DNA from: a virus
Lineage: Duplodnaviria; Heunggongvirae; Uroviricota; Caudoviricetes
Virus record (IMG/VR): IMGVR_UViG_3300032030_000013
Direction: 5' to 3' (one strand)
DNA length: 64,000 bases
The notes under the pieces were generated by a model that saw only the letters and a program-made list of their open reading frames with translations, was not told where the DNA came from and searched no databases. Below are positions 55,651 through 63,519 of the stretch, piece after piece. Each line of letters starts with the position of its first letter. The stretch's first letter is position 1. Both the position numbers and the translations under genes were made by a program.

Positions 55651-56016
55651 TTAACTTTCTTTTTGTTTATTTGAATTCAATATTAATGCTACACACATTG
55701 ATATTTCTGAAGGATGTATGTCATTTACATCAGGTATAAATTGCTTCCAACCAAAATGATCAACAATTTCTTCAAAATCCTTTTGATTTAATTCTTGTAC
55801 ATAATCAAATAAGAACTGTCCTGCACCTTTCCAAAGATCTGCGTCTTTACCAGACCATGCATCTTTTTCTTTATCATATTTACAATCATTATGTTTAGAT
55901 AATTCATCTAAAATTGATTGTATCATATTTACTGCAGGATTTCTATGCAAAGGTTTTCTATCACCTAATCCTGGCGCAGCTCCGCGTTCAACTATATAGT
56001 TATTTAAATCTTTCAT
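55651..56016 (-). CDS. hypothetical protein, tag family (MKDLNNYIVE)
   Basis: 121 aa. Confidence 0.5.
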   Translation of the reverse strand: MKDLNNYIVERGAAPGLGDRKPLHRNPAVNMIQSILDELSKHNDCKYDKEKDAWSGKDADLWKGAGQFLFDYVQELNQKDFEEIVDHFGWKQFIPDVNDIHPSEISMCVALILNSNKQKES

Positions 56017-56048
56017 TATTACTTATATATGTTTTTTAAAATAAATAT

Positions 56049-56573
56049 TTAGTATCTATCTGTTATAATGATAGTATCTTTATTGTCTTTAAATATTTTC
56101 TTAACTTTATTGATTCCTAATTCCATATCATCAATTACTTTCTCAGGTATGCAATCATTTCTACGTTTCTTGCAAACATCTTTAGGAGTATCTATAATGA
56201 CTATCTTAACATTAGCACCAGCTTTATTTAACTTACTATAATAGTTTTCAACACGTCCTGCTTTAACATTTGTATTATCAATAACAAAATCTTTGCGTTG
56301 TCTTATAAGTTCATTAATACGTTCATCATTAATTCTAGTCACTTCCTTTTCTTGTTCTTTATCACCTATAGCTTTATGATCATCATCTTTCATAATTCCA
56401 AGTTCAACTCTTATTGAATCTTGATTAATAATTTCAATATTTTTTGGAAGTTCTTCTTTAATATATGTAGACTTACCTGAACCTGGAAGACCAACCATTA
56501 TCCAAACATTAAAAGGATTTTGTTTTTCAAATATATTTAATGATTCTTTTATGTATGTTAAAATTGATTTCAT
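56049..56573 (-). CDS. polynucleotide 5'-kinase (T4 Pnk kinase-domain-like P-loop kinase), tag family N-terminus (MKSILTYIKE)
   Basis: MVGLPGSGKSTYIKEEL, then INQDSIR, then VIDNTNVK, arranged like the T4 PNK kinase domain (GCPGSGKST...NRDDYR...ISDTNLN; recall-based). 174 aa. Confidence 0.55.
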   Translation of the reverse strand: MKSILTYIKESLNIFEKQNPFNVWIMVGLPGSGKSTYIKEELPKNIEIINQDSIRVELGIMKDDDHKAIGDKEQEKEVTRINDERINELIRQRKDFVIDNTNVKAGRVENYYSKLNKAGANVKIVIIDTPKDVCKKRRNDCIPEKVIDDMELGINKVKKIFKDNKDTIIITDRY

Positions 56574-56992
56574 TTCTTATTGATAATATCTTTGTATTTT
56601 TCAAATAATTCTTTATATGATAATTTAATATTTCTATCATATTTAAGTGTTATAGTATATCCATTTATAATATTTTGAATTGCCTTTTTATCATTACTTA
56701 TTATTCTCCAAACATTACCTTTTTTAATTTTGCCTTCATCATAATCAATATTCTTATATTCAAAAACATCATTAAGAATATCTATAATGTCGTTATATTG
56801 AATTCTAACTAATGTCTTTTTAAATGTTGGGCCTTCTATATAAGAAGAATTTTTCATTATAGATATAACTGCAGCTTTATAAATATTACATATATCTTCA
56901 GGATTATCATAATCAATATCCTTATAAGATTCAACTTTAGTATTCTTATTGATTATAAGTTTCTCTGATATAATGTCTTTTAGGTTCTTCAT
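56570..56992 (-). CDS. hypothetical protein, extended tag MKNLKDIISEKLIINKNTK
   Basis: 140 aa. Overlaps the upstream gene by about 47 nt. Confidence 0.5.
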   Translation of the reverse strand: MKNLKDIISEKLIINKNTKVESYKDIDYDNPEDICNIYKAAVISIMKNSSYIEGPTFKKTLVRIQYNDIIDILNDVFEYKNIDYDEGKIKKGNVWRIISNDKKAIQNIINGYTITLKYDRNIKLSYKELFEKYKDIINKK

Positions 56993-57281
56993 CCTTTAAA
57001 TCATTTGTATTTATAAATTTCTGAACTTGTTCTAAACTAAAATTATGACGTCCAATAACCATTTCTATATATGCTGCAAATTCTGCTGTACATCTATTAT
57101 CATCTAAACATTGATCTAAATAATCATTTATGTCAGCCGCTTTTAATGAATCTACTTTATCTTTAATGAACTTATAAAAGATGCCATTCTTATTCCACAT
57201 ATCTTTCATAATCTTTCCAATTTCTTGTTCGGAAAAATATGTATTTTGAGATTCATAAATATATTCATTAATTGATTTCAT
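56946..57281 (-). CDS. hypothetical protein, tag family (MKSINEYIYE)
   Basis: 111 aa. Confidence 0.45.
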   Translation of the reverse strand: MKSINEYIYESQNTYFSEQEIGKIMKDMWNKNGIFYKFIKDKVDSLKAADINDYLDQCLDDNRCTAEFAAYIEMVIGRHNFSLEQVQKFINTNDLKDEEPKRHYIRETYNQ

Positions 57282-57284
57282 AAT

Positions 57285-58751
57285 TTATTTACCTGCTAAT
57301 ATAATTATGTGTTTGCCGCTTTCAAGCATTTCAATTACTTGTTTATATGTATAATAATTTTTCTGACTCGAATAAAGATATCTATAATTTGGTTGATAAT
57401 CATTTATTGAATAACTTTGTTTTGTATTTGTTACCCATTTGTCATCTTCAATATTACAAACAAGTATTCTACTATATTTCATTAAATTAAAACGACGTAA
57501 TTGAAGTACAAAACTTTCAAATTTTTTCCATGATTCAGTATCTTCAGCAACTTTTTTAATGACTTCTATTTTCTTACCAGTATTTGTTGAATATACTACT
57601 GTATTAATTTTTGTATCTTTATTAATTTTTAATTTTTCATCAATAAAATATTCACCAAATGATTTAATGTTTCTTCTCATATATTGAGAAAGTTTAGATT
57701 CATTTATTTTTTGAAGTCTTTCGATTACTTTATTGACATTTAATTGGAATTCTTTAGATATAAAATAGTTACGTTTCTTTTGTTTGAAAAATACTTGTAA
57801 ATATTTTTCATATAAGAACTTCATATTGTCACCATACTCTTTGATGATATCTTGTATTTCTTTAGATGCTTTATTAATCTGTAATGTAAAGAAATCTTTA
57901 AACTTAGGTTGTAATGTATCTATTATATCTTCATATTTAGATTTGAATTCTTCATTATTAATCATATTAATAAAATTAGCATCTAAATTCTTAATCCAAT
58001 TATCATTCTCATGTTTGCCAATTTTATTAATAGTTTCATATATCAATTCATATAAGTTAATGTATTCTTCTATTTCTTTCTTATAATCTTCATTTCCTTG
58101 TTTGATTTCTTTATCATGACGAGTCTTAAATGCAGGATTAATTATCTTATACTGCGATATTGCATTATCTATATTCCATGTCAATACAATACCTTCAACT
58201 TCATCTCCGACTAAAAATTTCTGATAGTCACCTTTACCAAATATATTAGTAAGATATTCTTTATATACATCATTAGAAGTTTCTGATTCTAATGTCATCA
58301 TTGACATTAATGATTCAATCTGTTCTTTATTTAATTTACCTTCAAATAATATAGGAACACAATCTATGCCTAATGATTTTGATATTTCTTCTAACTTATT
58401 TCTATCATCTATTATATTATTATCATTATCTATAACAGTCAAAAGAATATAAGAATCGTTGAACATTTCAATAGCATAAAATTTATACTTCTTAACAGCT
58501 TCCTTTTTAGATTCAAAATAATCAATAGCATCATTAATGTTCTTTCTCATTAATTGAGTATATTCATCAATAATAGGACCTAATGATTTTGAAGAACCAC
58601 CACGCTTATGATATGTTATATTATCATTTTCTTTATCATAAGATATCTGAAATGCAGCGCCATCAACTTTTAAAGATATACTTACTTCTTTTGTAAATAA
58701 ATCTTTAACTACTTCAGGCTTCTTTAAATATCTATCTATTAAATGTTCCAT
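57285..58751 (-). CDS. ATP-dependent RNA ligase-like nucleotidyltransferase (KxDG motif)
   Basis: The N-terminal SISLKVDGAAFQ contains the ligase motif I K-x-D-G without the Arg typical of DNA ligases, as in T4 Rnl2 KIDG. 488 aa. Confidence 0.5.
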   Translation of the reverse strand: MEHLIDRYLKKPEVVKDLFTKEVSISLKVDGAAFQISYDKENDNITYHKRGGSSKSLGPIIDEYTQLMRKNINDAIDYFESKKEAVKKYKFYAIEMFNDSYILLTVIDNDNNIIDDRNKLEEISKSLGIDCVPILFEGKLNKEQIESLMSMMTLESETSNDVYKEYLTNIFGKGDYQKFLVGDEVEGIVLTWNIDNAISQYKIINPAFKTRHDKEIKQGNEDYKKEIEEYINLYELIYETINKIGKHENDNWIKNLDANFINMINNEEFKSKYEDIIDTLQPKFKDFFTLQINKASKEIQDIIKEYGDNMKFLYEKYLQVFFKQKKRNYFISKEFQLNVNKVIERLQKINESKLSQYMRRNIKSFGEYFIDEKLKINKDTKINTVVYSTNTGKKIEVIKKVAEDTESWKKFESFVLQLRRFNLMKYSRILVCNIEDDKWVTNTKQSYSINDYQPNYRYLYSSQKNYYTYKQVIEMLESGKHIIILAGK

Positions 58752-62864: not shown

Positions 62865-62904
62865 TATTTATAAAAATCTTTTTATCATTTTATTATATAT
62901 AAAA

Positions 62905-62942
62905 ATAAAAAAGTTAACCAATACTTATTAATTGGTTAACTT
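62905..62942 (-). terminator. rho-independent terminator (AGTTAACCAAT...ATTGGTTAACT plus T6 on minus strand)
   Basis: 3' of 62974..63465. Confidence 0.5.
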
Positions 62943-62973
62943 AAATTATATTATTTGAAATTATATTATTTGA

Positions 62974-63465
62974 TTATTTTTTATTTTCTTTAGATTTCTT
63001 AGCTTCTTTATCAAAAGAAATATCTATATCTTTACTTATATCAGGTATTGGCACAATATTCAATGCAGGAACTTCTACTTTAACTCCCTTTATGTCTTCC
63101 ATACTCTTAGGGTATTTAACATCTCCAAAATTATCTTTAATGTATTGATCCAAATCTACTTCATCTTTAGAGATATAAGGTATTGGAACAATAGTCAAAA
63201 GAGGAACTTTAAGCTGTGCTGTCTTTCCATTAGCATCAGTAAATTTTATTTTACCATCAGATTCTACAATATTTGGGTGATCAAACTTAGGATATTCTTT
63301 AATCAAGTCTTCAAGAAAATCTTTAGTGAATACTTCAGGTAATTGTTCTAATTTTTGAACATGATTATTCATCAATTCATCAACAGTCATATCTGTAGCA
63401 TCAACTACTCTTACAGTGTTTGGTAATATAAACTTACCAATTTTTTCTCTAATTTTATTAAACAT
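62974..63465 (-). CDS. hypothetical protein with internal duplicated segment (LKVPLLTIVPIPYISKDEVDL / VKVEVPALNIVPIPDISKDIDI)
   Basis: 163 aa. Confidence 0.5.
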   Translation of the reverse strand: MFNKIREKIGKFILPNTVRVVDATDMTVDELMNNHVQKLEQLPEVFTKDFLEDLIKEYPKFDHPNIVESDGKIKFTDANGKTAQLKVPLLTIVPIPYISKDEVDLDQYIKDNFGDVKYPKSMEDIKGVKVEVPALNIVPIPDISKDIDISFDKEAKKSKENKK

Positions 63466-63468
63466 AAT

Positions 63469-63519
63469 TTATAAAATATTTTTATTGTTTATTTTAATAT
63501 ATTCTTTTAATGATTTCAT
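63469..63519 (-). CDS. orphan 16-codon mini-ORF carrying the family tag (MKSLKEYIKINNKNIL*)
   Basis: Hand-translated. Likely a remnant 5' end of a tag-family gene rather than a functional gene. Confidence 0.25.
   Translation of the reverse strand: MKSLKEYIKINNKNIL

Follow-up and report, generated by a model that had tools for sequence, protein, structure and literature searches.

The capsid-targeting sequence (CTS) of phage T4, MKTYQEFIAE, is removed by a single cut of the prohead protease and directs into the head whatever protein it is fused to (PMC8442874). Amber-suppression genetics attributed targeting to residues 4 and 7 and processing to residues 8 and 10 (PMC9026906). The hypervariable internal-protein loci of T-even phages (Repoila et al. 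1994, as cited in PMC9026906 and PMC3012670) carry different cargo in related phages with the CTS alone conserved, a variation that has been read as an arms race with host defences. Neither the T4 CTS nor such variation between T-even phages is new (PMC3012670, PMC9026906); among the papers searched none ties a CTS to huge, gut or rumen phages, and the subject is absent from a 2026 jumbo-phage review. The present analysis concerns a peptide of the same length that recurs in a 64,000-nucleotide stretch of Caudoviricetes DNA (IMG/VR record IMGVR_UViG_3300032030_000013; the whole stretch is called the window), the source of which is a megaphage of roughly 450 kb from gut or rumen. This peptide, referred to here as the tag, heads many unrelated genes, not least in a cluster at 55651-63519, where a first-pass annotation had proposed that it was a targeting peptide. 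The proposal was borne out and could be made specific, as the tag matches the T4 CTS and is, to judge from its residues and the genes around it, probably a capsid-targeting sequence of the T4 type. The tag is also where genes recombine, undergo conversion or deletion, and become fused in frame.

Comparisons were drawn with 20 or more related contigs (L001, L002, L003, L009, L013, L015, L016, L018-L020, L024 and L029 are named below) and with database homologues (P numbers). Within the cluster eight open reading frames (ORFs) that the first-pass annotation had listed, on the minus strand and with ends at 56016, 56573, 56992, 57281, 59396, 60284, 60592 and 62864, begin MK-x-[ILF]-x-x-[YFI]-I-x-E, and all of their coordinates and tag starts checked out. 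Missed at that stage were 12 further N-terminal tags outside the cluster, plus several degenerate ones. The window as a whole has 20 N-terminal tags, all on the minus strand, and one internal copy in a cytidylyltransferase-like ORF; at least 25% of its genes are tagged. Of 77 predicted genes 19 have the core pattern at position 2, as against 6 occurrences at 19,850 other positions (expectation ~0.02 genes), and the frequency of the tag is therefore far beyond chance.

When every predicted gene starting with MK in the window region and 16 related loci was taken, with no other condition, information content peaked at positions 4, 7, 8 and 10 (1.47, 1.61, 1.58 and 1.93 bits, with <=0.86 at the remaining positions). 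Genes of the same loci that do not start with MK showed no positional conservation. Run over 119 kb of T4, the window's regular expression gave two matches, IPII and IPIII. Beyond the tag the 37 tagged families are unrelated to one another, with folds that include a P-loop kinase, HAD, a Pol-beta palm and DUF285 as well as many ORFans. A signal peptide or membrane anchor was considered and rejected, the tag not being hydrophobic and a membrane-like segment being found in 0 of the 37 families. Counted after dereplication, the mature portions of these families contain fewer [ILV]-x-E motifs than expected, 76 against 99.8 (observed/expected 0.76, z -2.8), whereas 87 untagged families showed no such depletion (1.07), nor did control motifs whose last residue is D, K or Q. 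An AlphaFold model of the tagged nucleotidyltransferase of the cluster predicts the tag to be a helix, with a low-confidence stretch directly after Glu10.

It is conceivable that the conserved 5' stretch acts as nucleic acid, either as an A/T-rich translation-initiation region suited to a non-Shine-Dalgarno host or as a recombination site for gene cassettes. Shine-Dalgarno sequences are absent upstream of the start codons of the window, the tag is written mainly in A/T-only codons and it is clearly a recombination substrate, all of which would suit such a role. Conservation is, however, at the level of residues. The 21 tags of the window share on average 20.7 of 30 nt (69%), Ile8 is encoded by ATA, ATT and ATC and position 7 by TTT, TAT, TTC and TAC, while Glu10 (GAA/GAG) is invariant. 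Furthermore, highly expressed structural genes are without the tag, and the in-frame copies at the C-terminal ends of enzymes, where there is no initiation, are kept in homologues down to 35% identity. A translation-initiation artefact was rejected on these grounds, and a nucleic-acid role of either kind is regarded as very improbable. Because the residues are conserved despite synonymous variation and in-frame tags occur at C-terminal ends, it is concluded that selection acts on the peptide, the DNA repeat being a by-product that recombination exploits.

The genes for a T4-type head are also present. A 575-aa protein (32184..33911, minus strand) combines a prohead protease of the gp21 family (Peptidase_S77, residues 1-200) with a scaffold-like region. 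Residues 1-200 matched Peptidase_S77 at E=1.3e-10 and 41.5 bits (curated cut-off 27); a Pfam search with the full-length protein missed this family, so that the match comes from the N-terminal 200 residues only. The best PDB match is T4 gp21 (5JBL), and the catalytic His and Ser motifs are present, the His of ELEHPN standing opposite an Ala of the deposited chain and SSRGAG aligning with ASRGLG. The Ala is presumably an engineered change of the catalytic site in a mutant. The scaffold-like region comprises an acidic D/K/E-rich linker followed by ~ten tandem 12-aa repeats, W[IV]xEEF[AS]PE[VI]Q[NG], each with an [I/V]-x-E site, an arrangement that resembles the cutting of T4 gp22 into small peptides. 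The major capsid protein of the Gp23 family (30282..32066, minus strand) carries AAIHEIHE/S at residues 34-42, the slash here and below standing after the Glu in question. Relatives have V-Y-E/S or L-Y-E/N where the window has IHE/S, which would be consistent with capsid targeting but is no proof of it.

A promoter-like motif, TTATTTTTATWWAA, occurs at 15 places in the window where 6.1 would be expected. Read on the coding strand, the motif stands upstream of the sheath, capsid and protease genes and g214, of the tagged genes or operons at 1690, 2515, 50610 and 62864, and of the sigma-like gene heading a first tag cluster (minus-strand sites at 1713-1726, 2542-2555, 20307-20320, 30118-30131, 32117-32130, 34002-34015, 49658-49671, 50644-50657 and 62895-62908). 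The last of these sites, TTATTTTTATATAT at 62895..62908 ahead of the second cluster, follows a hairpin; its motif is the one found in front of the capsid, protease and sheath genes. At other sites too a GC-containing hairpin often comes immediately before TTATTTTTATWWAA. L029, a diverged relative whose protease is 47% identical, has 11 occurrences against 1.9 expected, upstream of tagged genes, the protease and the capsid gene, and its protease and capsid genes have a tagged cluster directly upstream.

These genes bear on whether the tag could be a docking or processing peptide with a destination other than the capsid, be it a common enzyme hub, a phage-made compartment or a generic polyprotein linker. 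Such a destination would sit well with a tag that is found at N-terminal, C-terminal and internal positions and on all five enzymes of one apparent pathway, with cargo that is acidic or neutral instead of basic, and with the very large number of tagged genes. However, no hub or compartment gene was identified, the promoter-like motif is common to tagged operons and head genes, and the residue match to the T4 CTS at positions 4, 7, 8 and 10 together with a protease and scaffold of gp21 type is explained more simply by capsid targeting; a non-capsid destination is considered unlikely. Capsid targeting is preferred because the peaks of the tag are the functional positions of T4 and because the cognate protease, scaffold and capsid genes are present. 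Features of the T4 CTS found here are a peptide of ~10 residues with the functional positions, a gp21-family protease with its scaffold, and behaviour as a transferable module, orthologues occurring both with and without the tag.

The first-pass annotation had noticed a tag inside the ORF at 60599-61624 (minus strand) and ascribed it to a fusion of two genes or a lost stop codon. The internal tag is indeed there, MKSIKDFILES at residues 236-246 (ten codons at 60890..60919), as a joint between a HIGH-motif cytidylyltransferase-like domain with a Lys-rich linker (60920..61624, a superfamily-level match) and an appended 96-residue domain (60599..60889). It agrees with the N-terminus of the adjacent 101-aa gene in 12/12 residues and, over ten codons, in 30/30 nt (60563-60592), the Ser codons being TCA and AGC. 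Fusion stood up to comparison, but the missed stop did not. The same fused ORF, tag and 96-residue domain included, recurs in the independent assemblies L009, P0121 and P0122, and the tag is conserved in homologues; a missed stop codon or sequencing error was therefore rejected. The comparison of homologous loci that had been suggested as a check supports, over 20+ related contigs, not only the fusion but also a stranded tag and recombination at the tags, both taken up below.

An N-terminal tag was never seen on the cytidylyltransferase-like enzyme, which has a C-terminal one instead. After the enzyme core comes a Lys-rich linker, which varies, and then KEG-[M/L]-x-S-L-x-x-Y-I-x-E, an order seen in 10 of 12 related loci; the majority of database homologues, down to 35-38% identity, share this C-terminal tag, usually with 2-7 residues before the stop. 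Since it is conserved over such distances, the internal tag belongs to the enzyme itself and does not reflect a recent stop loss; on this comparison it is to be regarded as the enzyme's own conserved C-terminal tag, serving as a fusion joint. At least 14 unrelated domains stand behind it across homologues, and in ten clusters and locus L018 the domain is the nucleotidyltransferase, giving a single ORF of ~530-560 aa. A model of the fusion protein places the tag in what is predicted to be an exposed helix between two domains, after a disordered Lys-rich linker. A distant homologue, P0237 (L027/L028 10001-10603), has a C-terminal tag-like FKNLKDFILE-TLKTSKN, and 0 of 15 neighbouring genes are tagged.

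A similar joint, overlooked in the first-pass annotation, is present in the 488-aa RNA-ligase-like gene (57285..58751, minus strand), which has a KxDG motif and no N-terminal tag. Its tag-like segment, IKSFGEYFIDE (57636..57668, minus strand), then KLKINKDTK, has ATT in place of ATG and one extra residue, with F-I-D-E/K kept. The ligase core is conserved up to the tag, and the ~115-aa domain after the joint varies among relatives. In L018 it is a homologue of the free-standing 111-aa gene of the window and in L015 and L016 of the 121-aa gene, the protein of L013 terminates 6 residues past the tag, and the ligases of L019 and L020 are without it.

Frequent recombination at the tag-coding ends, shuffling cargo, had been claimed from the window alone, and a conversion tract, an inter-tag deletion, a scar and the fusions already described have now been seen. 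Between the window and L009 the flanks of the internal tag are near-identical, with ~9 differences inside the ~30-nt tag (MKSIKDFILE as against MRSLRTYILE). A conversion tract of ~30 nt is indicated, because the internal tag equals the tag of the neighbouring 101-aa gene at 30/30 nt and differs from L009 only there. The nucleotide alignment of tag 5' ends proposed in the first-pass annotation found these two to be the sole 30/30 pair among the 21 tags, the next best reaching 27/30. In L024, which comes from a different sequencing run and is 94% identical, the enzyme is followed by the tag and the 101-aa protein, exactly 327 bp between the identical tags is missing, the 96-residue domain with it, and the alignments of L024 and window overlap by the 31 nt of the tag. 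The 101-aa protein (60287..60592, minus strand; MKSIKDFILE/S) is thereby fused directly behind the cytidylyltransferase tag in L024/P0123.

The mini-ORF at 63469..63519 (minus strand), 16 codons encoding MKSLKEYIKINNKNIL and a stop, had been taken for a stranded tag. This proved right, as it consists of the first 26 nt and last ~20 nt of a tagged gene of 215-221 aa that is intact in L001 and L002, and by this comparison the mini-ORF is to be read as a deletion scar. More widely, the tagged genes that fill the slots separating conserved genes vary from one relative to another. Ends of homology blocks fall within -20 to +50 nt of a tag start in 52 of 98 cases against 8.8 expected, an excess that counts for less in that it is partly due to tags sitting at gene starts. 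Cargo shuffling mediated by the tag is very likely on this evidence.

Could the tagged proteins instead be paralogues with a common N-terminal helix, and the internal tag and mini-ORF artefacts of assembly or sequencing? Some tagged genes are indeed paralogous (the DUF285 copies and the 'fam18' pair). The unrelated downstream folds across the 37 tagged families speak against a paralogous family, and an artefact is contradicted by the presence of both fused ORF and scar in independent assemblies of different samples. The combination was rejected and is scarcely credible.

The enzymes themselves were identified with varying precision. The tagged 174-aa gene at 56049..56573 (minus strand; MKSILTYIKE/S), labelled PNK kinase at first, is a PNK-like P-loop kinase by AAA_33 (E=2e-20) and phrog_505. 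The label DUF285 for the tagged 203-aa repeat protein at 58785..59396 (minus strand; extension EKLIINKNIKV) was confirmed at E=2e-46. Close relatives have 0-2 copies of this repeat gene (L002 13056-14356; L003; L024), and its internal repeats cross-hybridise. The Pol-beta label of the 294-aa nucleotidyltransferase (NTase; 59400..60284, minus strand; MKSFKNYILE/S) holds at fold level. The NTase had no Pfam match; its sequence carries GS-x10-GDIDVAV, fitting the Pol-beta-type G[SG]...D-x-D motif, and its AlphaFold model (pLDDT 89.7) has the palm domains of Pol lambda and Pol beta as best PDB matches, a partial match at E ~3e-6 and TM ~0.35. Its homologues keep the tag in 110 of 120 cases, and a few orthologues begin directly at the mature domain.

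The label NMNAT was over-specific. NMNAT-specific models match the HIGH-motif segment only, at 16-20 bits against cut-offs of 127-409, and what survives is a HIGH-motif cytidylyltransferase-like enzyme at superfamily level, distant homologues of which match PF01467 (CTP_transf_like) and PF08218. PDB sequence searches with the NTase, the ligase and the cytidylyltransferase gave no useful match, and a PADLOC scan of the ten cluster proteins gave no significant one. The genes for the PNK-like kinase, the HAD hydrolase and the RNA_ligase family are separate and syntenic in all relatives, the ligase match being marginal (PF09414, 28.6 bits against a cut-off of 27). In the RNA repair set of T4 (Pnkp plus Rnl), kinase, HAD phosphatase and RNA ligase work jointly on broken tRNA. 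It is speculative that the HAD phosphatase, PNK-like kinase, RNA-ligase-like protein, NTase and cytidylyltransferase-like enzyme form a delivered kit for RNA repair or nucleotide modification.

A mechanism along the following lines would account for these observations. The tag would form a short amphipathic helix, the hydrophobic residues 4 and 7 of which dock the protein on the scaffold core of the assembling prohead, and the gp21-family protease would cut behind Glu10, the last residue of I-x-E. Once matured, the cargo would be retained in the head and ejected into the host with the DNA; it would comprise dozens of ORFan proteins, most of them small, together with nucleic-acid enzymes. At the heads of tightly packed genes the ~30-nt tag-coding stretch at the same time acts as a dispersed in-frame repeat, and the comparison with relatives shows that recombination between its copies deletes, inserts, converts and fuses cargo genes. 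In-frame fusions would be tolerated because the tag may also be a cleavable joint. The two enzymes without an N-terminal tag bear it C-terminally, with different cargo domains attaching there, and both the internal tag and the mini-ORF are products of this recombination.

Several caveats must be applied to capsid targeting. The phages are uncultured, and docking, cleavage after Glu10, retention in the head and ejection are steps that we infer from sequence. The cargo is not basic as the small, DNA-binding internal proteins of T4 (IPI-III) are, the median pI of the tagged families being 6.8 with many at 4.2-5.5, and the load, at least a quarter of the window's genes and perhaps ~100 per genome, greatly exceeds that of any phage studied so far. 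Cutting would leave a C-terminal tag attached to its enzyme, and we know of no demonstration that a T4 CTS works at any position other than the N-terminus. The depletion of [ILV]-x-E in mature cargo is modest, the alignment of the capsid IHE on the cleavage site of gp23 was not significant, and the promoter-like motif may mark a general instead of a late promoter class. Finally, tags were not found in 35-50-kb stretches of Sphingomonas phage PAU, the huge phage LR756500.1, Lak-B1 and Lak-A2 (code 11 or 15), and since these sampled stretches lack it the tag is not a general trait of this capsid lineage.

A more far-reaching proposal, which we put forward tentatively and hold to be possible but rather doubtful, is that one ten-residue peptide serves both as packaging address and as universal cleavable joint, that perhaps ~100 pre-made proteins are injected, including a complete kit for RNA-end repair and nucleotidyl transfer that would be active before expression begins, and that effectors are recruited and fused by recombination at the tag. 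Such a plug-and-play arsenal, if true, would be the phage counterpart of effector repertoires driven by secretion signals. Should the tag be a working CTS, the ejected proteome of an uncultured megaphage clade, otherwise inaccessible, would be predictable in full from a simple sequence rule, and the T4 principle would be extended across very distant phages of the Gp23/gp21 type. Pre-packaged enzymes resembling those of RNA repair would point to counter-defence in the first minute, and a short in-frame repeat, being a protease site as well, would provide a route to new injected effectors and multidomain fusions. A second, natural tag would also become available with which to load large capsids with foreign proteins, and ideas on phage proteins that act before transcription would become directly testable.

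The remaining genes of the second cluster, all on the minus strand, are tagged cargo of varied kinds. The 121-aa protein (55651..56016) begins MKDLNNYIVE/R, the 140-aa protein (56570..56992), missing from L002, has the extension EKLIINKNTKV after its tag, and the 111-aa protein (56946..57281) begins MKSINEYIYE/S. The 111-aa gene lacks its stop codon and so runs 47 nt into the next gene (56946-56992), reading through that gene's tag in another frame; L002 keeps the stop, the protein ending ...NTNDLKG. At the upstream end of the cluster lies a 415-aa protein (61617..62864; MKHLRDYIFE/T), and unrelated tagged genes occupy this place in L001, L002 and L003. Beyond the mini-ORF the 3' part of the HAD-phosphatase gene (63540..64000, minus strand) is truncated by the window end; its full-length orthologues (213-214 aa) begin with the tag. 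A second module, E-K-L-[IKR]-I-N-K-[ND]-[TI]-K-[VI], directly follows the tag in a subset of unrelated cargos (window 17056, 17835, 56992, 59396 and 57636-57668; P0163, P0166, P0170, P0186 and L020).

The first tag cluster (12905..19059, minus strand) has 9 canonical tags (M codons at 13207, 15152, 16126, 16667, 17056, 17835, 18397, 18796 and 19059) and 5 degenerate ones. Genes with degenerate tags lie at 13337-13555, 13572-14486, 14503-14787, 17083-17451 and 17835-18050; such tags, for example MKDIISKINE, MKSINNYIDN, MKDIKEKLLE and MKSIVDSINE, may be decaying or variant. Further tagged genes on the minus strand are a 286-aa gene inside the structural module (49750..50610), with the promoter-like motif upstream, and a pair of 336 aa and 209 aa (680..2515), with the motif upstream of each. 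Pfam searches with ten cluster-1 and other tagged proteins gave no match. Sigma-factor-like genes (phrog_351) lie at 6384-7601 and 19083-20252, the second heading the first tag cluster with the N-terminus MKSLTQIKEA.

The window is AT-rich (GC ~27%) and is a piece of a very large tailed phage. Recognisable genes, besides the Gp23-family capsid protein and the 575-aa fusion of head maturation protease and scaffold-like region, are a 1018-aa tail sheath, a topoisomerase II subunit, a helicase, the two sigma-factor-like genes, a 2368-aa ORF and BspA-type leucine-rich-repeat proteins. Three of the latter (LRR_5), then the 2368-aa ORF, lie just downstream of the protease gene (34077-46337) and could be head or tail decoration or adhesins. 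A scan of the window for tRNAs found none. The best public relatives of the capsid protein are an uncultured 462-kb phage (37% identity), Sphingomonas phage PAU, Tenacibaculum jumbo phages and Lak megaphages. Close relatives, at 80-95% DNA identity, are restricted to metagenomes, with contigs of up to 435-460 kb, and when the region was searched as DNA at near-identity, 50,697 phage records gave zero matches. A/T-rich stretches (taaatt/ataatt) precede the start codons, as in Bacteroidota-type hosts, a context that would fit the Lak (Prevotella) and Tenacibaculum phage relatives.

Among known systems phiKZ and SPN3US are alike in having large heads with ~50 proteins, many of them cut after Glu by a gp21-related protease and ejected into the host. 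Their propeptides, however, are long (often >100 residues) and non-uniform, with no common 10-residue tag, the cleavage motif is S/A/G-x-E or A-x-E, and the protease belongs to family S80. T4 Alt is a head-packaged and injected enzyme that gp21 processes at both ends (ITE-6 and LTE-619), so that processing away from the N-terminus has a precedent. The propeptide of Alt has 6 residues and another sequence, and Alt is a single case with no interchangeable cargo family. T4 also offers a parallel to the stranded tag in alt.-1/alt.-2 (L021, T4 123065-123450), the annotation of which describes an old duplicate of 5' alt sequence into which a stop was introduced. The variable internal-protein loci of the T-even phages differ from the present case in that here the products of recombination are directly visible, as conversion tract, inter-tag deletion and in-frame fusions, and the process extends to cargo domains joined onto enzymes.

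The closest system remains the T4 CTS itself. Both have a ten-residue N-terminal peptide, M-K-x-hydrophobic-x-x-aromatic-I-x-E, with Glu at the cleavage position and with the residues conserved here being those functional in T4, and both have a gp21-family protease, a Gp23-family capsid protein and mutually unrelated cargo. The systems differ in number, dozens of tagged genes per 64 kb here as against 3-6 per T4 genome, and in cargo, which here includes enzymes and is non-basic; tags are also found here at C-terminal ends and as internal joints. The phage differs too, being an uncultured AT-rich megaphage of ~430-460 kb with a capsid protein ~21% identical to gp23, in which packaging is predicted. 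What is new in relation to these systems is the scale of the tagged repertoire, the enzyme cargo, the C-terminal and internal tags as fusion joints and the visible products of recombination.

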